Shown here in pieces: positions 30,180 to 53,682 of a stretch of DNA of 64,000 bases (position 1 is its first letter; the number at the start of each line of letters is the position of its first letter). The stretch is taken from positions 80,301 to 144,300 of the forward strand of contig CAVWBP010000002.1 in assembly GCA_963753165.1 (NCBI GenBank). Direction: 5' to 3'. The position numbers and the translations under genes are program-made. Origin of the DNA: Thermodesulfovibrionales bacterium. Lineage in GTDB: Bacteria; Nitrospirota; Thermodesulfovibrionia; Thermodesulfovibrionales; SM23-35. Under the pieces are notes generated by a model, which saw only the letters and a list, made by a program, of their open reading frames with translations, was not told the origin of the DNA and made no database searches.

Positions 30180-30180
30180 G

Positions 30181-36304: not shown

Positions 36305-38408
36305 ATGAGGAAATATTTATATTTAATGATATGCCTGTTTCTTGCCGCCTGCGGCAGCCAGTCTTCCACGAACATCTCTTCAGATACATCAGGGTCCTCG
36401 GGCAGCATTAAGCTCTCTACGCAATCCATTCTTGCGGAGATGGAGAAGGGCGGCCAGTACAAGGACGGGGAACTGCTCGTGAAATTCAAATCCGGCGTCA
36501 AGGCCGCATCGACTGCTGCAGTGCATCAGGCAGCGGGGGCAACGGTCATAAGAAAATATACCGCAATCCAAAACCTTGAACAGGTGAAACTGCCCCAGGG
36601 GCTTTCGGTCAAAGATGCAGTGATGCAGTACATGTCGAGCCCGGGCGTTGAATACGCAGAACCGAACTATATAAGAAAATTAGACACCATAATACCGAAT
36701 GATACCTATTTCGCAAACCAATGGTCTTTCCTGAACACCGGTCAATATGCATATGGAATAGCCGGTGCGGATATCAAAATGGCGGCAGGATGGGATGTTA
36801 CCATCGGCAGCGGCGACATAACGATTGCGGTGCTTGATACGGGAATCGATTACAGCCACAATGACCTTGTCTGGAACATATGGAGGGATCTGGGCGAGAC
36901 GAGTTGCACCGATGCTATCGATAATGACGGAAACGGATACGTGGACGACTGTATAGGCTGGAATTTCGTCGATAATAACAGTGATTCAATGGATGACCAT
37001 GGCCACGGGACACATGTAGCGGGAGTTATCGGGGCCAAAGGGAATAACAGCACAGGCATTGCGGGCGTTATGTGGTTGACAAACATGATGGCGTTGAAGG
37101 TATGCGACGCGAATGGTTCCTGTGATGTCGGGGCTGAAATCGCAGCCATCGATTATGCTATTAACATGAAGGATAACCATGGGGTGAATGTGAGAGCCAT
37201 GAATGCCAGTTTCGGCGGCGGTGATTTTTCGGCTTCGGAATATCAGGCTCTCGCACGGGCAAACACCGCAGGGATTCTTTTCGTAGCTGCTGCAGGAAAT
37301 GGCGGCGGAGATGGAGTCGGCGATAATAACGATGTTGCCCCTCATTATCCCTCGAGTTACGATCTGCCGAATATTATCGCGGTCGCAGCGACTGACCAGG
37401 ATGACAGAAGGGTCTCATTCAGCAATTTCGGCCCAACCTCTGTTGATGTGGCGGCACCGGGTACCTATATTTTCAGTACAGTACCCAACTGGTGGACAAT
37501 GTATTATGGATACGGCCATCTTGAGATGTTCGATGGCACTTCCATGTCTACCCCGCATGTGACCGGTCTTGCCGGCCTTTTGAGCGCATATTATGGTCAT
37601 TTTACCCATGGCCAAATTCGTACGATGATACTGAGATATGTTGATGTGCTGCCCACGCTGAACGGCTGGATTCTCACAGGCGGAAGGATCAACGCGGACA
37701 GAGCCCTGAAGTCACTGTGGGCGACATACGATCTTTCTGCAACCCCGGTTTCCGCGTTACAGATGGATCTGGCATGGACCGACCGGGCTACGGACGAAAT
37801 CGGTTATAGAATTTATAGAGGAACAGACGGGATTTCTTATCTGCAGATAGCCACAGTCGGCGTGAACGGGTCATTTTACTCGGATGCAGGCCTCACTGAC
37901 GGGACGAGATATTATTACAGGGTGAGGGCGTTTAATGATATCGGCGAATCCCCTCTCCAGCAGGGAACTCAGGTATCTCAGGTGACGCCTATTAACCCTC
38001 CGACGAATCTGAGAGTAGTAACAACCTCAAGCGCTCAGATCCAGCTTGCCTGGTCGGACAATTCGTCGACTGAACAGAACTATTTGATCGAGAGACGTAC
38101 ATATAACAGTGATTTTGTACAGATAGACCAAGTGGGCCAGAACGTATCTACCTACACTAATTCCGGACTCAGTCCGGCCACTTCATACTGGTACAGGGTG
38201 AGAGCACATAATCCGGTTGCGGGATATTCTGCATATTCCAATGAAATTTCAGGGACCACTCTCTACTTCAGGCGGGACCACGAAGAAGCATGGCGGAGGC
38301 GGTGGATGTTCTGTCGGAGGGCCGCAGAATACACCGACAGCATTTGCAGACCTCCTGATACTGCTCATGCCTGCAATCGTACTCGCACTCATAAGACGGA
38401 GGAATTAA
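36305..38408 (+). CDS. S8 subtilisin-family serine protease lipoprotein: I9 prodomain, two FN3 domains and a Gly-Cys C-terminal sorting tag. The tag is in frame 0 after a shift near 38258-38262.
   Basis: Lipobox LFLAACG. I9 prodomain: GELLVKFKSG...GVEYAEPNYI. Catalytic triad: VLDTGIDYSHNDL, HGHGTHVAGVIG, GTSMSTPHVTGLAG. FN3 x2: YRIYRG...YYYRVRAFN and YLIERR...YWYRVRAHN. Shifted tail: GGGGGCSVGGPQNTPTAFADLLILLMPAIVLALIRRRN. Confidence 0.9.
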
Positions 38409-38436
38409 GGGTAATTACCGCTTATACATTTTCAAT

Positions 38437-38470
38437 ACAACCCCGAACATGTTCGGGGTTGTCTGTTTTT
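38437..38470 (+). terminator. Rho-independent terminator downstream of the first S8 protease
   Basis: Perfect palindrome ACAACCCCGAAC-at-GTTCGGGGTTGT followed by cTGTTTTT. Confidence 0.8.
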
Positions 38471-38546
38471 AGGGTGCCTTCTGATTCAGGGTATATGATG
38501 GGGTTCTCATAATAGTGTTGGACATAGAATTGAGTGCTTTTACTTT

Positions 38547-38610
38547 GTCATGCTGGCTTGTCCAGCATCTTTCTTCGCAGCAAGAAGGATTCCCGACAAG
38601 CGGGAATGAC
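38547..38610. repeat. Family-C palindromic element, copy 3
   Basis: Sequence gtcatgctggcttgtccagcatctttcttcgcagcaagaaggattcccgacaagcgggaatgac. Confidence 0.8.
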
Positions 38611-38677
38611 ACACTGGGTGAAGTCAATACTATTAGCACATCTTGATAATGTCAAAAAAGGTTAACAAGGATAACCA

Positions 38678-39554
38678 TTGAACACAGGACTTCTTACAAA
38701 AAGAACTATTTTTTCCCTGAATGTCTGCCTTAGCATCTTCCTCCTTTTCGCGGTCCTTTTTCTTGTAAGAGATGCGATGACGCTGTATTTCGAACAGGGA
38801 AAGACCATAAGGACGGAATCCACTTCGCCTGCCAATCAAGAAGCGGGAGCGAAAAAGGCGCAATTTACAGAGTACGCCCGTATCCTTGCCAATAACCCCT
38901 TTGGTTTCTCCGGAGGCGAACTGAAGCTTCTGGCCGGTTCTCTCCGCAAGCCTCTCGAATCCCGCGGATATCGCGCTGGTCGGCACAGTAGTGGGGCCGA
39001 AGGAACTGACGTTCGGGGTATTCAGGGACAGGACAGGTATGCAGGAAGTATTCAGGCTCGGCGAATCGGTCTTTGGAGCAGGGAAGCTCTCACGGGTCGA
39101 AAGGGAAAAGGTCCTGCTCAAACAGGGAGGCAGAGAGATCGAAATCCCCCTCGATGATGTCAAAATAAAAGAGATCAGCAAACCAGGCATTGCAGGCAGT
39201 CCACAGCTTTCCGCATTTGCCCAGAAGGTTGGGAGGGGTTTATACATCGTTGATCAGAACAAACTCCAGCAGGCAATTGCCGATCCGGGCCAGATGATGA
39301 CTGACGCACGGCTGAAACCAAACGTTGCAAACGGCAAGGAGGAAGGGTTTGTCCTCAATGAGGTGAAACCCGGGGGGATATACCATAGCCTGGGCCTCCA
39401 GGACGGTGATGTGCTGCTCCGGATAAATGAATATGATATTTCGAATCCTGAAAGGGCGCTGCAGGCATTTAATGCGCTGAAAGGTCTCGACAGGGTGCAG
39501 ATTGACATGATCCGTTCGGGTGCACGGATGACTATGACATATCAGATCAAGTAA
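38678..39554 (+). pseudogene. gspC: Type II secretion system protein GspC (TM segment, HR region, PDZ domain); frameshift near 38925-38945 as assembled
   Basis: TTG start and the TM segment IFSLNVCLSIFLLFAVLFLV. After the shift: DIALVGTVVGPKELTFGVFRDRTGMQEVFRLGESV...KVLLKQGGREIEIPL. PDZ: GFVLNEVKPGGIYHSLGLQDGDVLLRINEYDI. Confidence 0.8.
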
Positions 39555-39657
39555 GAAATGAATATAAGCGCATAGCAGGATAGCCTAATTAGACGGGTAA
39601 AGTATATTGATGATTCCCGCTTATCTTGTCCTTTCTCTGCGGAAGAGAAGATCGATG

Positions 39658-39688
39658 GTCATTCCCCTGAGTAAAGCCGGACAATGAC
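39658..39688. repeat. Family-C-like partial element, copy 4
   Basis: Sequence gtcattcccctgagtaaagccggacaatgac, preceded by a degenerate gattcccgcttatcttgtc. Confidence 0.5.
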
Positions 39689-39829
39689 ATATAGAACTAT
39701 GAGACCTTTAATACTGGCTGTAACTAGTGTTTGATGCTAAAATAAACGGTGATGCAGAATAGGGCTCCTGGAAGAGATTGCTCATCTCATGTCACAATAG
39801 ACTGAAGAGATGAAAAACAGCGAGAGGAA

Positions 39830-42140
39830 ATGAATAAACAACGGTCATCAGACATTATGAATGTATTCGCTATTCTGATTTTAATTGGATTTTTCGCCTC
39901 CGCTTCTCATCCCTGAATCTCTCTTCGCTGAAGAGACCCCGACCGATACCGCTGTTCAAGAGGATCAGCCTGTCAAAGTACAACAGGGGGATAATCCTCA
40001 GCAGGAACTTAAGCAGACTGGAAAACAAAAAGGCAGGGAGAAAAAAGTCGCCTTTAATTTTGTTGATGTGGACATACCGGTCGTGTGAAGTTTATCAGTG
40101 AAGTAACGGGCAAAAACTTTGTGTTCGATGAGAGAGTAAAAGGCACAATAACCATCATCGCTCCGTCCAGGCTTTCTGTGGACGATGCATTCCGTCTCTT
40201 CACCTCTGTGCTGGAGCTGAAAGGGTTTACCATCATCCCGTCCGGAAAAGTGTATAAGATTCTGCCGACTGCGCAGGCAAAGCAGACAGGGCCCGAACTC
40301 CAGAAAGACGAGGTTGTGCACGGTGAGCGATGCGTATATCACAAGGCTCATACAGCTGAGGGCGATATCATCTGCGAAGGCAATGAATTTCCTCCAGCCC
40401 CTTGTCTCAAGGGACGGACATATCTCTTCGTTCGGCCCCGGAAACATGCTTATGATTGTGGACTCTGCCACAAATATCGAGCAGATACTCGAGATCCTCG
40501 ACTCGATAGACAAACCGGGGGTGGAGGAAGCGGAGATTATCCTGCTGAAGCATGCAAATGCGGATGACGTGGTGAAGATCATCACCGAGACGCTGGTCCT
40601 GAGCAGCAAAGGGCAACCCTCTGCGATACGCGGACTGAGGCCGGGTGCAGGTGCCGGCAGCATCTGTCGAAGAATCCAAATCGTCTGTTTTTGCAGATAC
40701 CCGCCTGAATGCAATCGTCCTGATCGCGGACAAGCAGGGAAAGAGAGGCCATGAAGAGGATCATAGCGCTCCTCGATATCCCGCTTCCCGAGGCAACGAG
40801 CAAGATCAACGTCTATTTCCTTGAATATGCCGATGCGACGGAGCTCTCCGAGGTGCTCGAAACGATGCTTTCAGGGATTTCTGCACAGCAAGGGCAGGGC
40901 AGGCGGGACAGCAGGGCCAGGCCCAGAAGAGCCCCTTTGAGCCGGAGGGAAGATGATTATTTCCCCGGACAAGGCAACCAACTCTCTCGTTATTGTGGCA
41001 TCTCCTGCAGATTACCAGAACCTTGTCCAGGTAATAAGGCAGCTTGACAAGAAGAGAAGGCAGGTGTACGTGGAGGCGATGATCGTTGAAGCCTCAATAG
41101 ACAGATTGCAGGAACTCGGGTCCAAGTGGCGGATTATCGCCGAGAAGGACGGAGAACCGGTAGTGGTCGGAGGGTTCGGCCAGATCGACTCTACCTCAAT
41201 GCAGGGAATTCTTTACGGACTCACCGGAATGACAGCCGGCGGCATGGGAAACTTTCTCGATGTCCCGATTACGACAATTGGTTCGGACGGATCAGTTATC
41301 ACCTCGACACTCACAGTTCCGGGATTTGCCGCACTTTTCAGCCTGAACGAATTCAAGGATGCTGTAAATGTCCTTTCCACACCGCAGATCCTGACTTCAG
41401 ACAACAAGGAAGCGGAAATCATTGTAGGGGAAAATGTCCCGTTCATAGCCCAGAAAGAATCGGACCCCGCACGATCGCAATCAATTTTTACCTCGATTGA
41501 GAGAAAAGACGTCGGAATCACCCTGAGGATCACTCCTCAGATTACCGAAGGGAACCATGTGAAACTCGACATCTATGAGGAGATATCAGCCCTGAAGCAG
41601 GAATCGACAACGGTGGTGCTTACCGTGGGACCGACGACCACAAAACGTTCGACAAAAACGTCTGTTCTTGTCAAAGATAACCAGACTGTTGTAATAGGGG
41701 GGCTCATGGAAGAGAGAGAGGAAGAAACAGTGAATAAAATACCGCTCCTGGGCGACATCCCCCTCCTGGGCTGGTTGTTCAAGAATAAATCTGTGGAAAA
41801 AAAGAAGACAAACCTGCTCATATTTTTAACGCCCCATATTGTGAGAGAACCTGAGCAGCTCGATAAATTGACCGGTGAAAAAAGGCTGCAATTTGCAAGG
41901 ATGGAAGAAAGATATAAAGAGGGCGAATTGCTCGTAAAATTCAGGGGGGAGACTTCAGAAGAGAGAATCATGGAGATACTCTCTCAGGAAGGCGCTGCTA
42001 TCCTGGCCCCGTTACAACCGAAAGGGCTCTGCCGGATACAGCTGAAAAAAGGCCGGGAAGTGAAAGACGCGGTCAGGATTTTCACTGCATATCAGGAAGT
42101 GGAATATGCGGAACCCAATTATATTATGAAAATACAGTGA
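39830..42140 (+). pseudogene. gspD: Type II secretion secretin GspD with a C-terminal I9-prodomain-like extension; five or more frameshifts between 39.9 and 41.0 kb as assembled
   Basis: Signal peptide MNKQRSSDIMNVFAILILIGFFASA. N0/N1 pieces lie in different frames: VAFNFVDVDIPVV | KFISEVTGKNFVFDERVKGTITII | AKAMNFLQPLVSRDGHISSFGPGNMLMIVDS | SVFADTRLNAIVLIAD | INVYFLEYADATELSEVLE. Intact secretin core: VYVEAMIVEASIDRLQELG...LSTPQILTSDNKEAEIIVGENVPF...IPLLGDIPLLGWLFKNK...NLLIFLTPHIV. Confidence 0.88.
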
Positions 42141-42184
42141 AGCCCTTCAGAATTTAAAGCTTTTAAGATTATGAATGAATACAG

Positions 42185-43705
42185 ATGGAAACGATCGATG
42201 TCATAAAGGATGAGGATGTAGAAATCTCCCTTCTCCAGAATATTCCTCTCAGCTTCGTGAAGAACAACCAGATATTCCCTTTCAGCCGGAATGGCGAGGA
42301 ACTTTCAGGCGCTGTTGCTGACGACAGGGGGTTGCTGGCGCTTTCGGAAGTCGCAAAAACATTGGGCTTAAAGCCCAGACCTTTCAAGGCAAACTCAGGG
42401 ATCATCCTCGATGCAATCAACAGGTTCTACGGGCAAATGGGTTCGGCAGAGGAGGTTATGGATACCATAACCGGCGAGGACCTCTCCTCTGTCGCGACCG
42501 AATTCGAAGCCCCGAAAGATCTGCTCGAACTGACCGAGGAGGCTCCCATAATCCGTCTCCTCAACGCTCTCCTTCTCCAGGCGGTAAAAGAGAGGGCAAG
42601 TGATATCCACATCGAGCCGTATGAGAAAGAACTCGATGTGAGATTGAGAATAGACGGGATACTGCACAGGGTTTTGACCCCGCCAAAAATTATTCAGGAC
42701 GCGTTAATCAGCAGAATAAAGATCATGTCGAACCTCGACATCGCTGAAAAGCGGCTCCCGCAGGACGGAAGGATACGGCTTCTTCTCGGCGGAAGGGACA
42801 TCGATATCAGGGTGTCGGTCATCCCTACTTCTCACGGTGAGAGAGCGGTCCTGCGGCTCCTTGACAGAAAACAGGGCCTGCTGGGTCTCTGGGAGGTCGG
42901 GTTTAACAGGGATGACGAAAAGAATATGGAGGACCATCTGAGAAGACCGGATGGGATCATCCTGGTTACCGGACCCACGGGGAGTGGAAAAACGACGACC
43001 CTGTATGCTGCGCTCAACAGGATTCATACGGAAGAAAAGAATATTATCACGGTTGAGGACCCCATCGAATATCAGCTGAAAGGCATCGGACAGGTACAGG
43101 TGAACCCTAAAATACGGCTTACCTTTGCCTCAGGGCTCAGGTCTATTCTGAGACAGGACCCCGACGTGATTATGATCGGCGAAATAAGAGACCTGGAGAC
43201 GGCTGAAATAGCCATGCAGGCATCGCTTACAGGACATCTCGTTCTCAGCACCCTTCATACAAACGACGCACCGAGTGCGTTGGTGAGGCTTATAGACATG
43301 GGGATCGAGCCCTTCCTCGTCGCTTCGTCATTGGCCCTTGTGCTGGCGCAAAGGCTGGTACGGACGATCTGTCCCCAGTGCAAGATATCCTATACCCCGA
43401 CTGAGATCGAGCAATCATATTTTGCAGAACCTCCCAGGGTCCTCTACAGGGGACAGGGATGTGACAAATGCAAGGGGAAGGGATATCTCGGGAGACTGGG
43501 CATTTTCGAACTGCTTGAGATCAGCAATGAAATACGGCCCATGATCACCGAACGGATGGATTCTCAGAGAATAAAGAACCAGGCGGTTTCGCAGGGCATG
43601 AAGACCCTCCGGCAGGACGGACTTGAGAAGGTGATTCAGGGGATAACAACCCTTGAAGAGGTTCTGCGGGTAACACAGAAGGATTATGCCGATATTTCAA
43701 TATAA
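42185..43705 (+). CDS. gspE: Type II secretion ATPase GspE
   Basis: Walker A VTGPTGSGKTTTLYAAL. Asp/His boxes: ITVEDPIEYQL, RQDPDVIMIGEIRD, TGHLVLSTLHTND. Tetracysteine motif: CPQC...CDKC. Confidence 0.95.
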   Translation: METIDVIKDEDVEISLLQNIPLSFVKNNQIFPFSRNGEELSGAVADDRGLLALSEVAKTLGLKPRPFKANSGIILDAINRFYGQMGSAEEVMDTITGEDLSSVATEFEAPKDLLELTEEAPIIRLLNALLLQAVKERASDIHIEPYEKELDVRLRIDGILHRVLTPPKIIQDALISRIKIMSNLDIAEKRLPQDGRIRLLLGGRDIDIRVSVIPTSHGERAVLRLLDRKQGLLGLWEVGFNRDDEKNMEDHLRRPDGIILVTGPTGSGKTTTLYAALNRIHTEEKNIITVEDPIEYQLKGIGQVQVNPKIRLTFASGLRSILRQDPDVIMIGEIRDLETAEIAMQASLTGHLVLSTLHTNDAPSALVRLIDMGIEPFLVASSLALVLAQRLVRTICPQCKISYTPTEIEQSYFAEPPRVLYRGQGCDKCKGKGYLGRLGIFELLEISNEIRPMITERMDSQRIKNQAVSQGMKTLRQDGLEKVIQGITTLEEVLRVTQKDYADISI

Positions 43706-44866
43706 GGGATACAGGCCTGACGGTTCGGAGGTCGCCGGGCACTATCGAGGCAGCAAGCCAGAAGGAGGCAGCGCTCAGGCTTAAAGAGTCCGGACTCTAT
43801 CCAAGGAACGTAGCAGGGGCTTCAGAGAAAAGACGGTTCTCTCTGTTCAACCGGCACGATGCAACTCTCCTCCCCTCTGTGACGCGTCAGCTGTCAACAC
43901 TTATCTCCTCCGGTGTCCCGCTCCTTGAGGCCCTCAGGTCGCTTTCCGACGAACAGAAAGGTTTCTGGAAAACCATGCTGGTGGACATAAAAGAACGGAT
44001 TGCTGGCGGGATCGAGTCTCTCAAAGGCGCTTGGAAGAGTATCCGAAAATATTTCCCTGAATTCTATGTCAATATGGTTGCCGCCGGAGAGGCGAGCGGA
44101 AATCTCGACAATATTCTCACCCGCATTGCTGATTTTCTGGAGGCCCAGGACAACCTGAAATCCAAAGTCAGGACATCGATGGTCTACCCTGTTTTCATGA
44201 TCTGCATCAGTTTTATCGTGCTCTCTTTTCTCTTCGCCTTTGTGATGCCGAAAATTACCAGAATATACAAAGACACGCAGAGTGCACTCCCCTTGCTTAC
44301 CGTGGTCCTTATCTGGGTGAGTGAGATTTTTCAGCGTTACTGGTGGCTCCTTATAGGATTGCTTCTCGGCGGGTTATATTCCCTCAGGGAATTGAGGGAG
44401 AAGAAACGCGTATTCCTCGACAGGATGATATTGCGCATTCCCGGGAACATCCTCCAGAGTCTCTATTTCGGGCGTTTCGCCCGGACATTGGGGTTCCTTC
44501 TTGAGGGGGGGCTCCCTATGCTGAGTTCTCTTGAACTTTCTGCAAAGTCCATCGGGAATAAAGTGATCGAACATGAGCGTTCTGGAATCCGGGAAACGGG
44601 TGTCGGAGGGTGCACGGCTTTCTGCATCGCTCGATGGCTTTCCCCCGGTGCTCCTCCAGTTGATTTCGACAGGGGAGAGGAGCGGACAACTGGTAGAGGT
44701 TCTGAAAAATGCCGCACGTTCCTACGAGGAGGAGTTCTCCCGCAGGGTGGACAAAGCCCTTTCACTTCTTGAACCGGTGATGATTCTCTGCATGGGCTTT
44801 CTGGTGGGACTCATCGTCCTCGCAGTCCTTCTGCCGATATTCCAGTTGAACCAGTTGATAAAATGA
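43686..44866 (+). pseudogene. gspF: Type II secretion inner-membrane platform protein GspF; frameshifts near 43738 and 44570, plus a possible compensating pair around 44020-44055
   Basis: Starts MPIFQYKGYRPDGSEVAG | TIEAASQKEAALRLKESGLYP. Contains TRQLSTLISSGVPLLEAL and VNMVAAGEASGNLDNIL. After the shift: GFPPVLLQLISTGERSGQLVEVL...LLEPVMILCMGFLVGLIVLAVLLPIFQL. Confidence 0.88.
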
Positions 44867-44874
44867 GCATACGA

Positions 44875-44991
44875 ATAACTGTCCGGTATAGTACTTTCGC
44901 TCATTCTCGTCCCGAAAGCATTCGGGAGGACTCCGAGGTATTCCGATAAGAATCGGGATAAAGCCGCTCAAGTACTATACCGGACAGTTAT
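44875..44991. repeat. Structured intergenic element with perfect 21-bp terminal inverted repeats, between gspF and gspG
   Basis: ATAACTGTCCGGTATAGTACT (44875-44895) pairs with AGTACTATACCGGACAGTTAT (44971-44991). The interior carries the cccgaaagcattcggg hairpin shared with family-C copies. Confidence 0.85.
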
Positions 44992-45016
44992 CAGAGAACA
45001 ATATAACGGAGGAATA

Positions 45017-45448
45017 ATGAAGAACAATAAAGGATTTACCCTGCTCGAAATCATTGTGGTGGTCTTCATCCTCAGTCTCCTTGTGGCGATTGTGGCGCCG
45101 AAGATCATAGGGCGGACCGATGACGCGCGGATTGCAGAGGCAAAGGTTCAGATAAGGAATTTTGAGACTGCCCTGAAACTCTTCAAGCTCGACAACGGAT
45201 TTTATCCGGCTACGGAACAGGGGCTTGAATCACTCATCGAGAAGCCCACTGTCGGGCAGATACCCCAGAAATACCGTGAAGGCGGCTATCTTGAACAGAG
45301 AAAAATCCCGCTCGACCCCTGGAACAATCCCTATATTTATATCTCACCCGGTATCTACGGAGACTTTGATATCTTGAGCTACGGAGCAGATGGGAAAGAG
45401 GGCGGTGAAGGGAAAGATGCGGAGATCAAGAACTGGGACATGCAATAG
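45017..45448 (+). CDS. gspG: Type II secretion major pseudopilin GspG
   Basis: Prepilin signal MKNNKG|FTLLEIIVVVFILSLL. Also contains AKVQIRNFETALKLFKLDNGFYP, DPWNNPYIY and SYGADGKEGGEG. Confidence 0.95.
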   Translation: MKNNKGFTLLEIIVVVFILSLLVAIVAPKIIGRTDDARIAEAKVQIRNFETALKLFKLDNGFYPATEQGLESLIEKPTVGQIPQKYREGGYLEQRKIPLDPWNNPYIYISPGIYGDFDILSYGADGKEGGEGKDAEIKNWDMQ

Positions 45449-45886
45449 CACCGGATTTTCTCTTATTGAGCTGATCGTCGTACTCTTCGTCCTGTCTCTG
45501 GTCCTTGCGATTGTATTGCCGACCTTCACCGGTTTCGGAGAGAGCAGGCTTAAGGCCGAAGCACGGGAGATGGCCTCAATCCTGAGATACGTGAATGACA
45601 ATGCGGTATCGAGAAAAGAGACGTTCTTTCTGAAATTCGATCTCGGGAAAAATATGGTTGCCTGGAGTGAACCCGGAGGGAAAAAACCCGGTCTTTTGAT
45701 GATCTCACCGGCGTCGAAATACAATCGAGAGGTCTTGTGTCGAGTGGGGAACTGACTCTTTTCTTTGAACCTCTCGGCGCCCGTGAAAATCTCGTTGTGT
45801 ACATGAAGCGGGGAGACAGCCACATGACAGTTACACTAAACCACCTGAGCGGCAGGGTGAAAATCGAGACAAAGGATGAAGGATGA
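45417..45886 (+). pseudogene. gspH: Type II secretion minor pseudopilin GspH; frameshift near 45690-45700 as assembled
   Basis: Prepilin motif TG|FSLIELIVVLFVLSLVLAIV. After the shift: DDLTGVEIQSRGLVSSGELTLFFEPLGARENLVVYMK...VTLNHLSGRVKIE, stop at 45884-45886. Confidence 0.7.
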
Positions 45887-46031
45887 GGGATGAAGGAGAA
45901 ATAAAGAAGAAAAAAACATGAGGAAATACTTGTAAAAGAAAATATCAGAGGAATCTCTGAACAAGGATACGCTCAATGTCATTCCCGCGTGGCGGGAATT
46001 TTTCATCCTTCATCCCTCATCCTTCATCCTT
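45872..46031. repeat. Element bounded by perfect 26-bp inverted repeats made of GGATGAR heptads, spanning the gspH-gspI junction
   Basis: AAGGATGAAGGATGAGGGATGAAGGA (45872-45897) and its exact reverse complement (46006-46031). The 108-nt interior contains a family-C half-site hairpin ATTCCCGC-gtg-GCGGGAAT (45981-45999). Confidence 0.9.
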
Positions 46032-46361
46032 CGGAAGAGGGGCTTTACGCTTCTCGAGGTCCTGATCGCGCTGGCTATACTCAGCAGCCTGCTCGTCACC
46101 CTCATCTATACCGTGAATTACCAACTGGGACTCATCGAGAGGCAGGAGACTATCACGGTCGCAACCCTGCTCGCCAAGAGCAAGATGTCGGATCTCGAAA
46201 AAGATCCTGCCGGCAGCAAGGGAGAGTTCGATGCCCCCCATGAGCATTACTCATACGAGACTTTTGTGAAGGCCTCGCCGTATATCGGGGTTTCAGAAAT
46301 TATCGTTGTGGTAAAAGCGGGCAGTGAAGAGGTGAAACTGAATGAGTTTATTGTTCAATAA
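45989..46361 (+). pseudogene. gspI: Type II secretion minor pseudopilin GspI; GTG start and a frameshift in a G4 run near 46040 as assembled
   Basis: The frame after the shift reads G|FTLLEVLIALAILSSLLVTL...ERQETITVATLLAKSKMSDLE. The only in-range start (GTG 45989) is in the neighbouring frame. Confidence 0.7.
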
Positions 46362-47004
46362 GACTTATCCTTTATCCCCTTTTGCAGGGAAGGATAAGGC
46401 CGGGTTTCCTCCCTCCCGGCGAAAAGCCGGCTTTACGCTTCTGGAGGTGCTTATCGCAGTGTCGATCCTCTCCATCATTCTTGCCGCACTCTACAGCACA
46501 TTTTTCATGAGCCACAGGGCAATGGAAGGAATGGATGAATCTTTGACAAAACTTCAGGAGGCAAGAAGGGCCATCGATATCCTCAGGTGTGAACTTGAAT
46601 CGGCCTATCAGAATGAACAGGACGCAGATACTTTGTTCAGAATAGAGGACAGGGATGTCTACGGCAAGCAGACTACGCAGCTCGATTTCACCGCGTTCTC
46701 CGCAGTACGCCCCGGGCTTTCGAAGATTTCTTATTATGTTGAAGAGAAAGAGGGAAAACTGAGTCTCTTCAAAAAGGTGGAATCGCCGTACGGCAGGGAA
46801 GAATCAGAGGGCGTTGATATTATAGAAGATCTTGAAGGTTTTGCCGTCGAAGCAAAATATAATGATACCTGGGTAAGGACCTGGGATGCAGCAATAAATA
46901 AAGCAAAACCCGGGGAACTGAGGATCGGCATGACCATGAACATTAAAGGGCACACGATTACGCTCAATGATATCGCAAAACCGAGGATAGGAAATCAGGT
47001 ATAG
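46342..47004 (+). CDS. gspJ: Type II secretion minor pseudopilin GspJ, with an unusually long leader if ATG 46342 is used
   Basis: Contains RRKAG|FTLLEVLIAVSILSIILAAL, LQEARRAIDILRCELESAY and a beta-rich C-terminal half. Confidence 0.75.
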   Translation: MSLLFNKTYPLSPFAGKDKAGFPPSRRKAGFTLLEVLIAVSILSIILAALYSTFFMSHRAMEGMDESLTKLQEARRAIDILRCELESAYQNEQDADTLFRIEDRDVYGKQTTQLDFTAFSAVRPGLSKISYYVEEKEGKLSLFKKVESPYGREESEGVDIIEDLEGFAVEAKYNDTWVRTWDAAINKAKPGELRIGMTMNIKGHTITLNDIAKPRIGNQV

Positions 47005-47083
47005 ATTCCATATCATGAAAGAACAGAAGCCACTGTTTGAAAATTTAGTTGCTAAAAATTAACGGGTCAGGTTTCTCTAATAT

Positions 47084-47147
47084 GTCATTCCCGCTTGTCG
47101 GGAATCTTTTTGAGGAACCGGAAAGATTGCGGACAAGCCGCAATGAC
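47084..47147. repeat. Family-C palindromic element, copy 5 (near-consensus)
   Basis: Sequence gtcattcccgcttgtcgggaatctttttgaggaaccggaaagattgcggacaagccgcaatgac. Confidence 0.85.
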
Positions 47148-47158
47148 AAAAATTTCAT

Positions 47159-48089
47159 ATGAAATTGAAACAACCATATTTATTAGCAAGGAACCAGCAC
47201 GGCATGGCCTTGGTCATAACGCTGCTTGTCCTTGTGCTCTTGACCGCAATGGTAGTGGAATTTTCCTATGGCGTCTATACGGGCACGAATAATCTCTATA
47301 ACTGGAGGGATGCACAGCGCCTCTCCCTTATGGCAAAGTCAGGCGTCAGTGTGACTGCCAGGATTCTTAAAGGGTTGCGAATCAACAGAGTCAGTAAACA
47401 ACGCAAAATTTCATATTGAGATGCCTGTTGAAAATCCTTTCGAGGACTTTCAAGGGAATATAAACGTCAGGATCGAGGATGAAACGCCAAATTCAATCTA
47501 AACGCTCTTGTCTGTCCAGCGGGTGATCGGGATGTGAATATGGGAGCATACAATGCACTGAAGAGGCTTATTAGTGTGCTTGCACTTGATGAGAGGATAG
47601 CCAGACAGAATCGTCGACTGGATCGATGAAAACAGTGAGGTGAGAATTTCGGGGGGAGAAGCCGGCGCAAAGAATACTTTTCTTGATAGTACTGACGAAC
47701 TTCTCTTAATACGTGGGATTACCAAACAAGATTATGATACGTTAGTTCCTTATATTACGGTGTGCGGGTCAAAGGGGATGCTCTATGTTAATATTAATAG
47801 AGCAGACATCCCCGTTATGAGGAGCTTGTCAGATTGGATGAAAGAGCAGGATGCAGAGGAAATAGTCAATCGCCGCAACTCAATACCTTTTACAGGTGAA
47901 CATGGGGCAATTCTTGGAGAGATTCAAGGTATTGTGGGCGGATTTGGGACTGAAACAGGAGTCTTTTTGACTTCAGAAGGACAACACTTTTCTATAATTT
48001 CTACTGCATCATCAGGTGGTGTGAAGAGAATTATTGAAATGGTATTGAATACTGCGAAAAACACAATGGAGTACTGGAAGGAATATTAA
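47159..48089 (+). pseudogene. gspK: Type II secretion minor pseudopilin GspK; three or more frameshifts between 47.39 and 47.64 kb as assembled
   Basis: Starts GMALVITLLVLVLLTAMVVEF...WRDAQRLSLMAKSGV. Further pieces: IEDETAKFNLNAL, IVDWIDENSEV, and GGEAGAKNTFLDSTDELLLIRGITKQDYDTLVPYITV. Confidence 0.75.
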
Positions 48090-49153
48090 TGGCGACAGTG
48101 CTCTTTATCGATGTCAGGGAATCTGAAGTCGAAACCTATCTCTTCGATTCCGGAAGGGGTGGTCATACACTTAAGGAGAGGAAGACATATCCCCTGTCCG
48201 GCAACCTGGATTTTTCCCTCGATCCCGTTCCGGTGACTGTTGAGAATACCTATGTAAGCCTTCCTCTGAGCAGCCTCAATTTCAGGGTCGTAGACCTCCC
48301 GTTTGTGCAGAAAGACAAGGTCAGGGATGTCCTTCCCTTCGAACTTGACAGTATCATCCTCGGAGGATCTGAGAAGGTAGTCTTTGACGGCGTTCCGCTC
48401 AATAATTCCGGGGACGCAAGCCAGGTGCTTGCAGTGTATGCCGGGAAACAGACTATCGGGGACCTCCTCAGAAAACTGAAAACATGCAATGCAGACCCTG
48501 CCTGCGTAACATCGCTTGAGTTGAGCAAAGTGGTCCGGGAATTTTCATCGGAAAAACTTCTCGCTCCTGTGCGGTTGGAGGCGCAGGAAAGGGTATCTCT
48601 TGCGATTGAAGAGATGAAAATTCCTACCGTCAACCTCCGCAGGGACGAGTTCGCGTACACCCGCGAAACCGATAAGACAAAGAGGTCACTCAGATGGACT
48701 GCGCTCCTCGCGGTATTCGTCGCGCTTATTTTTGCGGCAGGTATACTGCTGAACATTCTCTCTGTCCGCTCGGAAATTGCAGCAGTAAAGAATGATATGA
48801 GGAAAAAATATCAGGAAGCTTTCCCCGGAGAAAAAAATATCATCAACGAACTCCATCAGATGAAGTCCCATATGAAAGAACTGAAAACCGATGAGGGACT
48901 CTACCTGGGAATCAGCCCTCTTGCAACCATCCTCAGGATATCGGATACTGACAGACAGGGCGTCGTGTTCCATGAGATAACCATCGACAGGGAGAACATG
49001 ATTCTGAAGGGCGAAGCGCCGACTCTGAGCGACGTGCAGAAGATGAAGGACAGGCTGGATGTTCTCTTTGACGGGGTCACCATATCAGACTCTAAGTCAT
49101 CTGCACAGGGCAGGATGCTGTTCACTATAACGGCAAAGGAGAGGAAATCCTGA
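48089..49153 (+). CDS. gspL: Type II secretion protein GspL-like (cytoplasmic actin-like domain, TM segment, periplasmic domain)
   Basis: Contains SLPLSSLNFRVVDLPFVQKDKVRDVLPFELDSIIL and the central TM segment WTALLAVFVALIFAAGILLNIL. Lies between gspK and gspM with coupled start and stop codons. Confidence 0.6.
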   Translation: MATVLFIDVRESEVETYLFDSGRGGHTLKERKTYPLSGNLDFSLDPVPVTVENTYVSLPLSSLNFRVVDLPFVQKDKVRDVLPFELDSIILGGSEKVVFDGVPLNNSGDASQVLAVYAGKQTIGDLLRKLKTCNADPACVTSLELSKVVREFSSEKLLAPVRLEAQERVSLAIEEMKIPTVNLRRDEFAYTRETDKTKRSLRWTALLAVFVALIFAAGILLNILSVRSEIAAVKNDMRKKYQEAFPGEKNIINELHQMKSHMKELKTDEGLYLGISPLATILRISDTDRQGVVFHEITIDRENMILKGEAPTLSDVQKMKDRLDVLFDGVTISDSKSSAQGRMLFTITAKERKS

Positions 49154-49656
49154 TGACGTTTCTTAAAGACAAAAGGGTCGTCGCTTTTTTTGCCGGTCTG
49201 ATCATTGTTATTTTTCTCTTCTTCTCCGGAATGCATCAGCTCTCATCATCAAAAAAAGAACTTGCCGCGCTCAAAGGACAACGGAATGAACTGTTCCTGC
49301 TGAAAGATGAATACCTCTCGCTGAAACAGAGAATAGATTCCGTGGAAGGCAGGAAGAGCCAGTCAGGCCCTCAGGGCATTGTCCAGGCAGTCGATGAAGT
49401 CTTCCAGTCTATGGGCTTGAAAGACAAAATAAAGACGCTGAAATCCACAGGGAAGAGAGAGATCAGGGACGGATTTGAAGAGAATGCCGATCTTTCCATA
49501 GAGAAAGTGACCATGAACGAGATGGTGAATATCCTCTACAGAATCGAGAATGCACCCATGGTCCTTACCATGAAAAAGGTTACCATAAAAAAGTCTTTTG
49601 AGAATCCCGAACTCATGAATATCTCCCTTGACCTCTCGTTCTTAAAGACAAAGTGA
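49153..49656 (+). CDS. gspM: Type II secretion protein GspM-like
   Basis: 167 aa with one N-terminal TM segment (VVAFFAGLIIVIFLFF), a coiled coil and a small C-terminal domain. Translationally coupled (ATGA) to gspL. Confidence 0.5.
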   Translation: MTFLKDKRVVAFFAGLIIVIFLFFSGMHQLSSSKKELAALKGQRNELFLLKDEYLSLKQRIDSVEGRKSQSGPQGIVQAVDEVFQSMGLKDKIKTLKSTGKREIRDGFEENADLSIEKVTMNEMVNILYRIENAPMVLTMKKVTIKKSFENPELMNISLDLSFLKTK

Positions 49657-50432
49657 AGCTTTTCCTCATCCTCATATGCGCGCTGGTCCTGATTGTCTTC
49701 GGACCATGGTTTGTTTTCTCTCCAAACACTCTGCAGGCCATTATCGAAGATTCCCTTTCAGCACACAGGATCGACACTGAATTGCATGGGCTGAAGAAAG
49801 GGTTGTTGTATACTATACATATTGATAGAGCTGTCCTGAGGCGGAACAGCCATGAACTGATCTCTTTGCATAATCTCTCTCTTCGTATTCACCCGGTCAG
49901 TCTCTTCATTTCCAGTCTGCGCGGGGCGATCGATGGAGAGGTATACGGAGGCACTATTTCCGGCAGCATGAAATTTACGAAGGACACGCAGCAGATGAAT
50001 TTTTCTCTGAAAGAAGTCAGCATCAGTGAGATAGTGTTTCTGAAAAGAATCGGACTGGCAGGGAAAGGCACCCTGTCCGGCACAGCAGCAATTACCGATG
50101 CAGCAGGTCATGTTGAGTTTGCTGCGAGGGACGCCCAATTTGAACCTGCCACCTATTCGGGAAGAAGGGTGCCCCTGAATATGTTTCGAGTTATTACGGG
50201 AGCGCTGGATATACAAGGTGATACGATACACATGCTGTCAGTTTCATTTGAGGGAGAAGAAGTGTTTGCGAGACTCAAGGGCAAGATTCAGAACGCGGTG
50301 ATGGATCTTGCCATGGAAATCATGCCGGGCAGGTCATTTGCGGAAAACCCCTTTCTGCTCGCGGAACTTGAGCAATACAAAGTTTCTCCCGGATATTTTG
50401 TAATACCGGTGAAGGGCAACCTTCCCCTATAA
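49653..50432 (+). CDS. gspN: Type II secretion protein GspN-like
   Basis: 259 aa with an N-terminal TM segment (LILICALVLIVFGPWFVF) and a beta-rich periplasmic body. Last gene of the gsp block, with a 4-nt overlap. Confidence 0.45.
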   Translation: MKLFLILICALVLIVFGPWFVFSPNTLQAIIEDSLSAHRIDTELHGLKKGLLYTIHIDRAVLRRNSHELISLHNLSLRIHPVSLFISSLRGAIDGEVYGGTISGSMKFTKDTQQMNFSLKEVSISEIVFLKRIGLAGKGTLSGTAAITDAAGHVEFAARDAQFEPATYSGRRVPLNMFRVITGALDIQGDTIHMLSVSFEGEEVFARLKGKIQNAVMDLAMEIMPGRSFAENPFLLAELEQYKVSPGYFVIPVKGNLPL

Positions 50433-50442
50433 GGAGGTTATT

Positions 50443-52749
50443 GTGAGATATTTCATTTACCTGGTTCTTGTGCTGGCGCTTGCAGGGTGCGGCGCAGAAG
50501 GACAACCCCGGATCACTCAAAACACAACGAATTCTGACTCTGTCGCCGTACACACACAGGAAGGTCCCCCCGCCGGGATGGTGTTACCGTTGCCCCGGTA
50601 TCTCCCCGGAGAAATTCTCGTGAAATTCAAGGCCGGAACTCCGAGCCACACAATAAATACGCTTAATCACGCAATGGGTGCGGCAACTGTCCGGGAACTG
50701 AAGCATATCGGAGTGCAACGGATTCTATTGTCTGATGCCATGGATCTTCAAGAGACGCTTGCCTCCTATCGATCGAATGCCGATGTTGAATATGCAGAAC
50801 CAAACTATATTGTGAGAAAGGCGGTCATCCCGAATGACCCCGGATTCCCTCAGGAATGGGGGCTCTCCAATACCGGGCAGACCGGAGGGAGCATTGATGC
50901 AGATATCGATGCTCCGGAAGCGTGGGACATCACCACCGGTTCACACGATATTCTCATCGCCGTGATCGATACAGGAGTGGCATATGGCCATCCGGACCTT
51001 GCAGCAAATGTCTGGCAGAATACGAAAGAAATTCCGGCGAATGGCATAGATGACGACGGGAACGGATACGTCGATGACGTCTATGGATGGGATTTTATCG
51101 ATAATGACGGGTATCCGGAAGACCTGGACTCGCACGGGACTCATGTCGCGGGTATTATCGCATCACAGGGCAATAATGGGGCTGGCGGATCCGGTGTTAT
51201 GTGGTCAGCCGGAATCATGGCGCTCCGTTTTTTAGGGGTGAGCGGGTCAGGTGATGTGGGGAATGCAGCCAGGGCAATCATCTATGCTGCCGACAATGGA
51301 GCGCGGATTATCAATGCAAGCTGGGGTGGTTTTGATTACTCAACTACTCTCTATAATGCTATCAGCTATGCACGATCCAAAGGGGTGCTCTTTGTTGCCG
51401 CTGCCGGGAATGAGGCGCAGAACAGTGATTTCGCTCCATTCTATCCTTCAGCATTTACCCTCGACAATATCATATCGGTTGCTGCTTCCGACAGCATGGA
51501 TAACCTCGCGTATTTTTCGAACTATGGAGCAACCTCTGTTGATCTGGCTGCCCCCGGAGTGGGGATCTATAGCACGGTCCCCGTTATTTCGGCGGGTGCT
51601 CCGGTTACTGTTTACAGTGAGAACTTTGACAGTGCGTCAGGTCTGCTTCCGCTGCTCGGATGGGCTCAGGGGGGAGTGAACGCAACATGGGCGGTAACCC
51701 CGGGCACCGGGGTGAATGGAACGAACAGCCTTGAAGACAGTCCGGGAGGAACCTATCTGCCAAACACAAATTCCTGGGCGGGCTATCTGACCCTTCTGCC
51801 AGCCGTGAAAAACAACCGTTATATTTTGTCCTGTGTCTGGAAAGGATATATTGATTCGTTTAGCCTCGATTATTTCCAGTTCAATTATTCTCCGGACGGC
51901 AAATCCTGGGAAACAGTTGCCTGGACAGACGGAAATACAGGAGGCAATTTTGTCCCGGTTTCTACCGACCTAATTACGGAAGCAGGTGATCTCTACGACA
52001 GGTTCTCTGTCGGTTTCGGTCTCCAATCAGACGGGGTCCTCCAGCAGGAAGGTGTCTATATTGATGATGTTACTGTGCAGAGGCAACCGCTGAGTATAGG
52101 CAGTTATTCATATGCATCGCAGGCCTGGAACGGCACCTCTCTTGCTGCTCCGTATGTGAGTGGCGCAGCAGGACTGGTATTATCTGCGAATCCTTCGTTC
52201 GTATACTCGGATGTCAAAAACATTCTCCTGAACAGCGTGGATAAGAAGCCTTTCCTCCTCGGGACTTCGGTTTCAGGGGGAAGGCTGAATGCCTTCGCAG
52301 CGTTAAAAGGGATGGCCCCGGCTGCGCCGTCAAATCTTGCAGCAACTGCGGTTTCATCAAGCCGCATCGATCTTTCCTGGACTGAAGTCTCCTCTGAAAC
52401 CGGCTTCAGCATAGAGAGAAAGACGGGAGAGAGCGGGATATTTGGAGAAATCGCACAGACAGGAATGAACAGTATGAGTTACGGTGACACCGGCTTGAGT
52501 CCGTCTACGACTTACTTTTATCGCGTGCGCGCGTATAACGCATCCGGCTATTCAGTATATTCGAATGAGGCACAGGCAACAACAGACAAATCTTCCTCCG
52601 GCAATGGAGGTGGAGGCGGCGGCGGGTGTGCCATCGGGGGCACCGCTTCCTCTCAGACAGCGATAGCAGATACCCTTGTGCTGGTTCTTCCTCTCATCAT
52701 TGTGTATCTTTTGAGAAGGAAAGGATCGAATACGCTGTTTCGCAATTAG
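50443..52749 (+). CDS. S8 subtilisin-family serine protease lipoprotein: I9 prodomain, a ~190-aa insert between the His and Ser regions, one FN3 domain and a Gly-Cys C-terminal sorting tag (GTG start)
   Basis: Lipobox LALAGCG. I9 prodomain: GEILVKFKAG...DVEYAEPNYI. Catalytic triad: VIDTGVAYGHPDL, HGTHVAGIIAS, NGTSLAAPYVSGAAG. FN3: FSIERK...YFYRVRAYN. Tail: GNGGGGGGGCAIGGTASSQTAIADTLVLVLPLIIVYLLRRKGSNTLFRN. Confidence 0.92.
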   Translation: MRYFIYLVLVLALAGCGAEGQPRITQNTTNSDSVAVHTQEGPPAGMVLPLPRYLPGEILVKFKAGTPSHTINTLNHAMGAATVRELKHIGVQRILLSDAMDLQETLASYRSNADVEYAEPNYIVRKAVIPNDPGFPQEWGLSNTGQTGGSIDADIDAPEAWDITTGSHDILIAVIDTGVAYGHPDLAANVWQNTKEIPANGIDDDGNGYVDDVYGWDFIDNDGYPEDLDSHGTHVAGIIASQGNNGAGGSGVMWSAGIMALRFLGVSGSGDVGNAARAIIYAADNGARIINASWGGFDYSTTLYNAISYARSKGVLFVAAAGNEAQNSDFAPFYPSAFTLDNIISVAASDSMDNLAYFSNYGATSVDLAAPGVGIYSTVPVISAGAPVTVYSENFDSASGLLPLLGWAQGGVNATWAVTPGTGVNGTNSLEDSPGGTYLPNTNSWAGYLTLLPAVKNNRYILSCVWKGYIDSFSLDYFQFNYSPDGKSWETVAWTDGNTGGNFVPVSTDLITEAGDLYDRFSVGFGLQSDGVLQQEGVYIDDVTVQRQPLSIGSYSYASQAWNGTSLAAPYVSGAAGLVLSANPSFVYSDVKNILLNSVDKKPFLLGTSVSGGRLNAFAALKGMAPAAPSNLAATAVSSSRIDLSWTEVSSETGFSIERKTGESGIFGEIAQTGMNSMSYGDTGLSPSTTYFYRVRAYNASGYSVYSNEAQATTDKSSSGNGGGGGGGCAIGGTASSQTAIADTLVLVLPLIIVYLLRRKGSNTLFRN

Positions 52750-52778
52750 TGAAAGATGCAAAAGTAATGTCCTATTTT

Positions 52779-52848
52779 GTCATTCCGGCTTGCCCGGAAT
52801 CTTTCTTCAGAATCCCGAAAGCTTTCGGGACCGACAAGCGGGAGTGAC
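52779..52848. repeat. Family-C palindromic element, copy 6
   Basis: Sequence gtcattccggcttgcccggaatctttcttcagaatcccgaaagctttcgggaccgacaagcgggagtgac. Confidence 0.8.
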
Positions 52849-52921
52849 AGATTACGAGTAAATTGCATAGGGCATTAATTATGCAGGAATCAATCATGTG
52901 CCTGGGGAGCGGCAATTCTGT

Positions 52922-53461
52922 TTAACCGGGAATTGACTGTTGTATCAGATTCGCAAGCCAGTGAAATATAATCCCGGGCAGTATATTGTTCGTCTTCAGG
53001 TAAAGCCATCCCATAATCAGTGAGGGGAAAAAACTGAGGAGTACAATCCAGTCGCCCCCGAATATCGTCTTCGGGAGATGGGCAAGCGCAAACAGGAGGC
53101 TTGCGAGGACGATAGATTTATAATTCTTCCCCAGCGAATCCTGAATGAACCCTCTGAAGAAAAATTCTTCAGGGAACGCAACGCTGATAAACTGAAACGC
53201 TATGAAATAAGGGGTAAGGTCTGTCATCTGTGCTCTGAAGGCAATCCCGTAAGGCACAAGAATCAGCAGTGTTATGGCAATCCCGAGCACGATATCCTTC
53301 GGAGAAGAACTGATCTTTACCCTGTAGCCTGTGATTATCGGATAGAGCAGCAGGAAGACCGGCAGCATCAGGTGGATATACGTTTTTGCAGGACTCAGTG
53401 CATGGAGGAGAAACGAGAGGACCAGAACGATACAATACCCTGATATGGTTTTTTTATTCAT
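52922..53461 (-). CDS. CPBP-family intramembrane glutamic endopeptidase (type II CAAX protease/Abi fold)
   Basis: 179 aa, polytopic. Motif 1 FPEEFFFRGF (EExxxR), motif 2 LLFALAHL (FxxxH), motif 3 IFHWLANL (HxxxN). Confidence 0.85.
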   Translation of the reverse strand: MNKKTISGYCIVLVLSFLLHALSPAKTYIHLMLPVFLLLYPIITGYRVKISSSPKDIVLGIAITLLILVPYGIAFRAQMTDLTPYFIAFQFISVAFPEEFFFRGFIQDSLGKNYKSIVLASLLFALAHLPKTIFGGDWIVLLSFFPSLIMGWLYLKTNNILPGIIFHWLANLIQQSIPG

Positions 53462-53513
53462 CGCTGTTTTATGTCTGATTCAGTAATATAGTCATAAGAA
53501 AAAGATATCCGCT

Positions 53514-53572: not shown

Positions 53573-53682
53573 AGAACTATCAGACATGTCTGCTTGATAG
53601 TAACCTCCCTAGTATAGTATCTTCCGGACGGAGAAAAATTCCATAAAAACTATGGTATACTTTCACAAAACAATCGGTAATT

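Follow-up and report, generated by a model that had tools for sequence, protein, structure and literature searches.

The window analysed here is a 64-kb stretch of DNA from a Thermodesulfovibrionales bacterium, and this work focuses on a block of about 17 kb within it (36305-53461) that holds the genes of a type II secretion system (T2SS), two subtilases ending in the same kind of cysteine tag, and the gene of a small CPBP-family membrane protease. We believe the locus is a Nitrospirota (Thermodesulfovibrionales-like) version of the surface-sorting route that links a Cys tag, a myxosortase and a T2SS, with the subtilases as its main clients, and we would put the probability of this reading at roughly 0.6. 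The layout itself is real, conserved and biologically coherent. The initial annotation of this block pointed to Myxococcus xanthus, and published precedent exists: the link between Cys tag, CPBP protease and T2SS was described by Haft (preprint 10.1101/2023.06.07.544157), and cleavage by the Myxococcus enzyme MrtX was demonstrated experimentally by Guo, Haft and Wall (PMC11980579). Our literature search found no paper on this system in Nitrospirota, nor on the fusion of a secretin to a protease prodomain, a feature discussed further below.

Read from left to right, the block contains the first subtilase (S8-1), a hairpin, gspC-D-E-F-G-H-I-J-K-L-M-N, the second subtilase (S8-2) and a convergent CPBP gene. 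The initial annotation had given this order, with the hairpin behind S8-1, a 10-nt gap between gspN and S8-2 and the CPBP gene on the opposite strand, and all of it is confirmed. The three genes on which the sorting argument turns are these:

36305..38408, + strand: S8-1, a lipoprotein-type pre-pro-subtilase with Fervidolysin_NPro, Peptidase_S8 and two fn3 domains (Pfam)
50443..52749, + strand: S8-2, a lipoprotein-type pre-pro-subtilase, intact, with a prodomain, an S8 domain carrying an insert, one fn3 domain and a Cys tag
52922..53461, - strand: CPBP/Rce1-like glutamic intramembrane protease, myxosortase-like, intact (PF02517), convergent with S8-2

The two subtilases share one plan. S8-1 begins with the lipobox LAAC, continues through a Fervidolysin-type prodomain, an S8 domain with its D/H/S residues and two fn3 domains, and ends in the Cys tag GGGGGCSVGGPQNTPTAFADLLILLMPAIVLALIRRRN; S8-2 has the lipobox LAGC, a prodomain, an S8 domain, one fn3 domain and the Cys tag GGGGGGGCAIGGTASSQTAIADTLVLVLPLIIVYLLRRKG. 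Both clear the Pfam cut-offs for the catalytic domain (PF00082, 183 and 182 bits) and the prodomain (PF22148, 65 and 56 bits), and the DTG, HGTH and GTS motifs are present in both translations. The insert of S8-2, about 170 residues between the His and Ser catalytic regions, receives no Pfam assignment here.

The tag is tripartite: a Cys motif, a transmembrane helix, and a basic cluster at the extreme C-terminus. The alignment of 55 distinct tags needs no gap anywhere between the Cys and the basic pair, and it shows a G-rich stretch and then the pattern C0-[SAT]-[IVL]-G3-x3-N-x-Q-T10-A-x-A-D14-x6-P21-x7-[RK][RK]. C0, D14 and P21 are invariant in this set, and G3, T10, A11, A13 and the basic pair at 29-30 are nearly so. 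An exhaustive HMMER profile search of 1.84 billion cluster representatives (E <= 1e-3) recovered 56 tagged ones, nearly all of them matched at the extreme C-terminus. Peptidase_S8 is found in 20 of the 56 and fn3 in 22, while about 9 are large Ig-repeat proteins, and one tagged Ig-repeat protein (P0276) maps to a 5-kb contig. Subtilases are the main clients of the tag, not the sole ones. The initial annotation called both proteases tagged and drew a comparison with the MYXO-CTERM proteins of Myxococcus xanthus; the conserved tag is indeed there on both, but it is not MYXO-CTERM. That model (TIGR03901) goes unmatched by the tags (E >= 0.57), the Synerg-CTERM model gives no match, and JDVT-CTERM (NF033191) draws weak matches from 5 of 10 tags, the best at 16.5 bits against a cut-off of 27. 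The Cys/Asp/Pro tag is missed by the current curated models.

The CPBP gene encodes a minimal protein of 179 residues that scores 77.7 bits against PF02517, where the cut-off is 22.4. The motifs EExxxR, FxxxH and HxxxN are intact, and they are invariant across 22 homologues. The top NCBIfam matches are MrtS, MrtP, Mrt_core and MrtC, and the homologues are annotated just as generic CPBP or Rce1 proteins. The suggestion of a putative sorting protease is supported as far as the sequence goes: the protein is a myxosortase-like member of the CPBP family with its catalytic motifs in place.

The tag and the enzyme can be set beside four known sorting systems. The MYXO-CTERM, MrtX and T2SS system of Myxococcus xanthus (PMC11980579, 10.1101/2023.06.07.544157) shares the Gly-rich motif with an invariant Cys, the transmembrane helix and the Arg-rich end, as well as a CPBP-family sorting enzyme and a T2SS for the last step to the surface. 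However, MYXO-CTERM helices lack charge or proline and their motif is often GCGC, whereas the tag here has a single Cys and places an Asp at +14 and a Pro at +21 within the helix. The CPBP protein here is also minimal (about 179 residues) and reaches just 42 bits with the MrtX model, whose cut-off is 180, and its gene adjoins client and T2SS, while in Myxococcus the three are dispersed and the clients number in the dozens. JDVT-CTERM and MrtJ share the single Cys, polar and Pro residues conserved inside the helix, a small number of clients and a client gene adjoining the CPBP gene, but JDVT has a contiguous DP at +9 instead of the separated D +14 and P +21. Synerg-CTERM and MrtS of Synergistota have been tied to a divergent T2SS cassette by phylogenetic profiling (10.1101/2023.06.07.544157), and MrtS is the best-scoring relative of our CPBP protein (80.3 bits); the Synerg tag is shorter, though, the phylum is another one, and the GspN found here is of the Leptospira type (TIGR04411). 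Finally, GlyGly-CTERM, rhombosortase and VesB of Vibrio cholerae also join a serine protease with a Gly-rich tag to intramembrane processing and T2SS delivery to the surface, steps that for our locus are read from the genes. In that case the sorting enzyme is a rhomboid serine protease, no Cys is needed, and VesB is trypsin-like rather than a subtilase.

The physical linkage of cargo, machine and putative sorting protease, which the initial annotation proposed, is real and common to many relatives. The neighbourhood is conserved, so the objection that it might recur in no relative fails. The closest relatives are metagenome-assembled genomes (MAGs) of Nitrospirota; GspE is 85% identical to that of a Thermodesulfovibrionales MAG, and the CPBP protein is 98% identical to a copy on a Joint Genome Institute sediment contig. 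The CPBP homologues (53-78% identity) led to six long contigs, all of which have gspE-N, a tagged S8 gene with prodomain and fn3, the convergent CPBP gene and aroC, and in relatives gspN and the S8 gene overlap or are separated by gaps of up to 94 nt, mostly 8-21 nt. The longer order of pilMNOPQ, Ig-like genes, S8-1, gspC-N and S8-2 is repeated in three loci (L005, L088 and L089); the CPBP gene is visible in L005 only, the other two stopping inside S8-2.

A wider count used 80 metagenomic CPBP loci, 67 of which had 250 nt or more of sequence to read on the side in question. A convergent open reading frame (ORF) bearing the tag lies beside the CPBP gene in 48 of these 67, and no more than 700 nt away in 44 of the 48. 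Where at least about 3.3 kb of flank was available, gsp genes were present in 22 of 23 loci. The rest of the 67 comprise six with gspN abutting the CPBP gene, a similar one (L125, gspN 420 nt off), four with a Big_5 gene plus a small gene, and eight that are unclear. More distant T2SS loci that lack the CPBP gene (L006, L008, L009 and L090) also lack the S8 gene and the tagged ORF.

Some of these relatives have arrangements that deserve mention in their own right. In L104 (10601-13469; also L106 and L115) genes for a glycerophosphodiesterase (GDPD) and a 687-residue sulfatase-family protein (PF00884) separate the CPBP gene from the tagged S8 gene. If these two proteins are located in the membrane, as enzymes of the phosphoethanolamine-transferase/LtaS type are, they would be candidates for attaching a C-terminal anchor moiety. 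In L143 (10697-12939; also L147, L166, L167 and probably L168) a Big_5 protein of 622-656 residues and a protein of about 120 residues, both untagged, are encoded between gspN and the CPBP gene, in the place of a tagged S8 protein. In L159 and L160 (around 10001-11332) gspN and the CPBP gene are turned round together, as one unit, with respect to gspC-M and aroC, and the rearrangement has not parted them. Another Nitrospirota T2SS operon, L014, has an S8 gene with a prodomain and an InhA-like MAM insert between gspF and gspG (12655-15048); its product ends in a transmembrane helix and then RRRRP with no Cys, a different anchoring solution.

The secretion machine itself lies between the two subtilases, with gspC through gspN all on the + strand from 38678 to 50432, as identified by Pfam, NCBIfam, a motif scan and orthology:

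38437..38462, + strand: intrinsic-terminator-like hairpin, 11-bp stem plus T-run, 29 nt past the true S8-1 stop
38678..39554, + strand: gspC, with T2SSC and PDZ; one frameshift near 38935
39829..42140, + strand: gspD secretin, with signal peptide, N0, Secretin_N repeats and secretin core; six frameshifts
41913..42137, + strand: C-terminal subtilase-prodomain-like domain of the secretin (PF22148), GELLVKF...VEYAEPNYIMKIQ-COOH
42185..43705, + strand: gspE ATPase, intact (PF00437, 488 bits)
43686..44866, + strand: gspF (PF00482); two frameshifts and three compensating insertions
45017..45448, + strand: gspG major pseudopilin, intact (TIGR01710, 170.7 bits against a cut-off of 88.85)
45390..45886, + strand: gspH, prepilin motif at 45453; frameshift in an A6 run at 45686
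46002..46361, + strand: gspI, prepilin motif KRGFTLLE at 46041; no canonical in-frame start upstream
46342..47004, + strand: gspJ, intact, prepilin motif at 46429; T2SSJ Pfam matches on its orthologues
47159..48089, + strand: gspK, by orthology, with T2SSK on its orthologues; three frameshifts
48089..49153, + strand: gspL, intact (TIGR01709, 57.7 bits, below the cut-off of 65); GspL_C in its orthologues
49153..49656, + strand: gspM, intact, by position and orthology; family matches weak
49653..50432, + strand: gspN (Leptospira-type), intact (TIGR04411, 89.1 bits against a cut-off of 50)

The secretin is matched by PF21305, PF03958 and PF00263 over its N0, Secretin_N and core regions, and its C-terminal 395 residues alone score 328.6 bits with TIGR02517. 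Prepilin motifs of the form GF[TS]LxE mark four genes, gspG, H, I and J among them, and the few family matches of GspL and GspM include the Synergistota GspL and GspM models of NCBIfam. At the other end of the operon, S8-2 starts with a GTG at 50443, 10 nt past the gspN stop; its Shine-Dalgarno sequence, a perfect AAGGAGG, shares nucleotides with that stop and sits 5 nt before the GTG. This arrangement supports a tight coupling of gspN and S8-2.

The initial annotation saw no prepilin peptidase in the window, and our scans agree: neither a search of all window ORFs for the GxGDxK motif nor Pfam scans of 30 of them (10 in the block and 20 outside) found GspO/PilD in the 64 kb. A gspO gene may lie elsewhere in the genome. 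No pilotin gene is present in the block. To call the pathway self-contained, as the initial annotation did, goes too far. Neither gspO nor an enzyme for attaching a lipid is encoded in the block, Ig-repeat proteins encoded elsewhere bear the tag too, some relatives have the CPBP gene and T2SS without an adjacent S8 gene, and others have the prodomain-bearing secretin without either.

From these genes and from the precedents above we infer tag cleavage, lipidation, T2SS dependence, surface display and a contact between secretin and subtilase, in the following way. Both subtilases would be made as pre-pro-enzymes with a lipobox and exported by Sec. Since both proteins carry lipoboxes, a lipid probably anchors the zymogen at its prodomain end. 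The C-terminal helix would sit in the inner membrane with its Arg/Lys cluster in the cytoplasm, and the CPBP protease, by analogy with MrtX, would cut the helix off at or near the invariant Cys, which, again by analogy with MYXO-CTERM, would be lipid-modified. The co-encoded T2SS would then carry the folded enzyme across the outer membrane, there to be anchored or released, and once the prodomain was removed the C-terminal anchor alone would remain. The prodomain-like module of the secretin probably contacts the catalytic domain of the subtilase, as a docking site or as a local inhibitor.

That module deserves attention of its own. The last 75 or so residues of the secretin match PF22148 (E = 2.5e-11), the GELLVKF and VEYAEPNY motifs and the fold are shared with S8 prodomains (PDB 1spb_P, 1scj_B and 1r6v), and an AlphaFold2 model has the beta-alpha-beta-beta-alpha-beta prodomain fold with a core predicted local distance difference test score (pLDDT) of 85-91. 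The best matches of the model in the PDB are the prodomains of subtilisin, furin/PC1-3 and fervidolysin, with Foldseek E-values that are modest, around 1e-2, as expected of a small domain. The domain recurs in 119 of the 120 top-ranking GspD homologues. Unlike the prodomains of S8 proteases, it comes free of a protease and is repeated on each subunit of the ring. The initial annotation called it cargo-derived. The Fervidolysin_NPro-like domain is certainly there, but its derivation from the cargo is an evolutionary guess, for the domain is 36-39% identical to each S8 prodomain, which is the same distance as separates one prodomain from the other.

The tail of a processed subtilase prodomain lies in the cleft of the protease, as the subtilisin structures show. 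Most GspD homologues terminate 5-8 residues beyond the conserved YAEPNY motif, and the secretin chain would thus end about where a processed prodomain would. One tentative idea, which we rate as possible and nothing stronger, is that the prodomain on each secretin subunit acts as a built-in receptor matched to the cargo, or as a safety inhibitor, gripping the catalytic cleft of the tagged subtilase at the outer-membrane channel. In a variant of this idea the lipoprotein subtilase may double as the pilotin of the secretin. In a classical GspD the S-domain, which follows the secretin core, binds the pilotin, and the extra domain of this secretin follows the core at the place where an S-domain sits.

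Several observations weigh against the sorting reading as a whole. The CPBP protein fails every myxosortase cut-off: Mrt_core (NF040914) 70.8 bits against 100, MrtS 80.3 against 130, MrtP 73.9 against 250, MrtC 53.8 against 195, MrtX 42.1 against 180 and MrtJ 39.7 against 75. Its orthologues in L001, L003 and L087 score likewise below the cut-offs, and the tags fail all CTERM models. The failure of the JDVT-CTERM and MrtJ models is meaningful because a true pair in the Nitrospiraceae MAG L039 passes both, with a JDVT-CTERM protein at 43.7 bits (cut-off 27) adjoining an MrtJ at 80.6 bits (cut-off 75). On present evidence the CPBP protein looks like a putative myxosortase that can be assigned to no named subfamily. 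The subtilases are not the only clients because the tag is also found on the large Ig-repeat proteins. In about 11 CPBP loci the neighbour of the CPBP gene is gspN, or Big_5 and the small gene, and there is no S8 gene; the distant loci L006, L008, L009 and L090 carry the prodomain-bearing secretin yet have no adjacent S8 or CPBP gene. The synteny was sampled in one clade, where aroC is just as constant a neighbour; common ancestry could thus account for much of the pattern, and synteny alone is no proof of function. Lastly, the frame-breaking indels described below are clustered in 36-48 kb and absent from 48-55 kb, which is uneven for random error.

If the tagged subtilases were not cargo, they could be proteases associated with the machine, or pilotin-like partners that dock on the prodomain-like module and either aid the targeting or stability of the secretin or process further exported proteins, much as the membrane-anchored mycosin of type VII secretion accompanies its own system. 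The argument has some appeal: the secretin ends in a prodomain fold, mostly 5-8 residues past YAEPNY, in place of a pilotin-binding S-domain and with no pilotin gene in the block; both S8 proteins have lipoboxes; S8-2 lies within the operon right after gspN; and the best NCBIfam match of both is the type VII mycosin (163 and 126 bits, below the cut-off of 279). We nevertheless regard it as unlikely. That match is generic S8 similarity under the cut-off, the same secretin domain occurs in many T2SS loci without a nearby S8 gene (the four distant loci among them), and in all characterised cases a cleavable tag with a dedicated CPBP protease marks exported surface proteins.

It could also be argued that the adjacency is nothing but inherited gene order, with the CPBP protein a membrane protease of housekeeping or unrelated function whose gene lies by chance between aroC and the T2SS operon in this clade, and the subtilases anchored by an uncleaved C-terminal helix or exported another way. 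The equal conservation of aroC, the sampling of a single lineage, the failed myxosortase cut-offs and the persistence of the CPBP gene beside gspN where the S8 gene is missing all fit this view. What makes us doubt it is the tag. In 48 of the 67 loci the CPBP gene is paired with a convergent ORF bearing the rigid Cys/Asp/Pro tag, conservation within a transmembrane helix is what one expects of a substrate of an intramembrane protease, and a tagged ORF was seen in no locus without the CPBP gene. The closest characterised relatives of the CPBP protein are, moreover, all tag-sorting enzymes, and a sister lineage has the genuine JDVT-CTERM/MrtJ pair of L039 (3947-6630) between gspD and gspE, inside its T2SS operon, which is an independent case of a Cys-tag system within a T2SS locus. 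We judge mere inheritance of gene order improbable.

The remaining difficulty for a functional surface-sorting locus is the state of the reading frames. The initial annotation described the operon as complete, and the sequence as given does not bear this out: it has 14 frame-breaking indels (one each in S8-1, gspC and gspH, six in gspD, two in gspF and three in gspK), and gspI has no ATG, GTG or TTG ahead of its prepilin motif. The indels were mapped with stop-to-stop maps and with tblastn using the intact L005 orthologues. The intact genes, as sequenced, are limited to gspE, G, J, L, M, N, S8-2 and the CPBP gene. In S8-1 a +1 indel near 38259 separates the tag frame (38202-38408) from the body; the long ORF ending at 38512 arises from reading on in the wrong frame, S8-1 really stops at 38408, and the tag frame agrees with the homologue tags in L005, L088 and L089. 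The gspD frameshifts lie near 39895, 40085, 40300, 40640, 40740 and 40940, and those of gspF at about 43732 and 44572. The breaks in gspD are not recoded in-frame stops, since the correct pieces lie in three frames and a long tblastn high-scoring segment pair had crossed mis-framed stretches. Homopolymer slippage is likewise rejected as the sole cause of the frameshifts; an A6 run is found only at the gspH shift.

We think these frameshifts are most likely assembly errors because the orthologues in relatives (L001, L003 and L005) are intact. In a DNA alignment with L001 the indels are single bases amid otherwise conserved sequence, and the same alignment places three 1-nt insertions in gspF (44005, 44030 and 44051) that jointly restore the frame. 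It is unlikely that they are real and that the pathway is decaying and non-functional in this organism: the 14 indels, the start-less gspI, the concentration of the damage in 36-48 kb next to a clean 48-55 kb and the insertion of palindromic elements between operon genes speak for such a pseudogene cluster, but the correct frames are free of nonsense codons, protein identity is high on either side of every shift, three frame-restoring insertions within 46 nt resemble read noise rather than evolution, pilQ outside the block is shifted too (near 32080-32120), and L088 and L089, from a European Nucleotide Archive assembly whose contig names resemble long-read output, are broken in the same genes while other relatives are not.

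The palindromic elements of the block form one family:

38541-38620, 45972-46031, 47078-47157, 52773-52854 and 53508-53582, no strand assigned: paired palindromes resembling repetitive extragenic palindromes or miniature inverted-repeat transposable elements (REP/MITE-like), unit approximately TGTCATTCCCGCTTGTCGGGAATCTTTC

They occupy intergenic gaps, two of them inside the gsp operon (gspH/I and gspJ/K), and by eye alone a probable degenerate copy can be seen in the gap 39555-39828. Inverted arms of 33 nt, rich in GGATGAA, flank the copy given as 45872-46031. The palindromes look like insertions in this genome because gspJ and gspK overlap in L005.

Directly upstream of the block, after truB, is a type IV pilus cluster (pilM-pilN-pilO-pilP-pilQ, 28576-33533) with an AMIN-domain secretin. 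Between pilQ and S8-1 (33556-36183) are two Ig-like lipoproteins with lipoboxes, one of them Big_1/invasin-like and the second frameshifted. They were considered as carriers of the tag and ruled out; they end in ...TVTVTP and have no tag. The interval between pilQ and S8-1 may be a hot spot for surface-protein genes, an idea suggested because L172 has a tagged Ig-repeat protein at the equivalent position. That protein is 1575 residues long, bears the Cys/Asp/Pro tag and lies directly past pilMNOPQ, where the window has the untagged lipoproteins. The rest of the annotated neighbourhood (1-8300, 26761-27654 and 61630-61785) includes part of a cell-wall and division cluster (murB, ddl and ftsQ) and four tRNA genes and is apparently unrelated.

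How a T2SS recognizes its substrates is a long-standing open question, and here the secretin has a domain homologous to the prodomain of the cargo. With cargo, machine and putative sorting protease in about 17 kb, the locus offers a compact system for testing recognition, tag cleavage and anchoring. If the receptor idea were true, this would be the first T2SS with a recognisable substrate-recognition module on its secretin, and together with the new Cys/Asp/Pro tag and a new minimal myxosortase subfamily it would make a distinct, compact surface-display system in Nitrospirota. The sorting reading would extend the principle of Cys tag and CPBP myxosortase to this phylum, with a tag and an enzyme subfamily that curated models miss. 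Proteins of this kind now carry no label more specific than "CPBP family" protease or "S8 family" peptidase. Subtilases anchored on the surface of Thermodesulfovibrionales-type Nitrospirota could have a part in protein degradation where these bacteria live.

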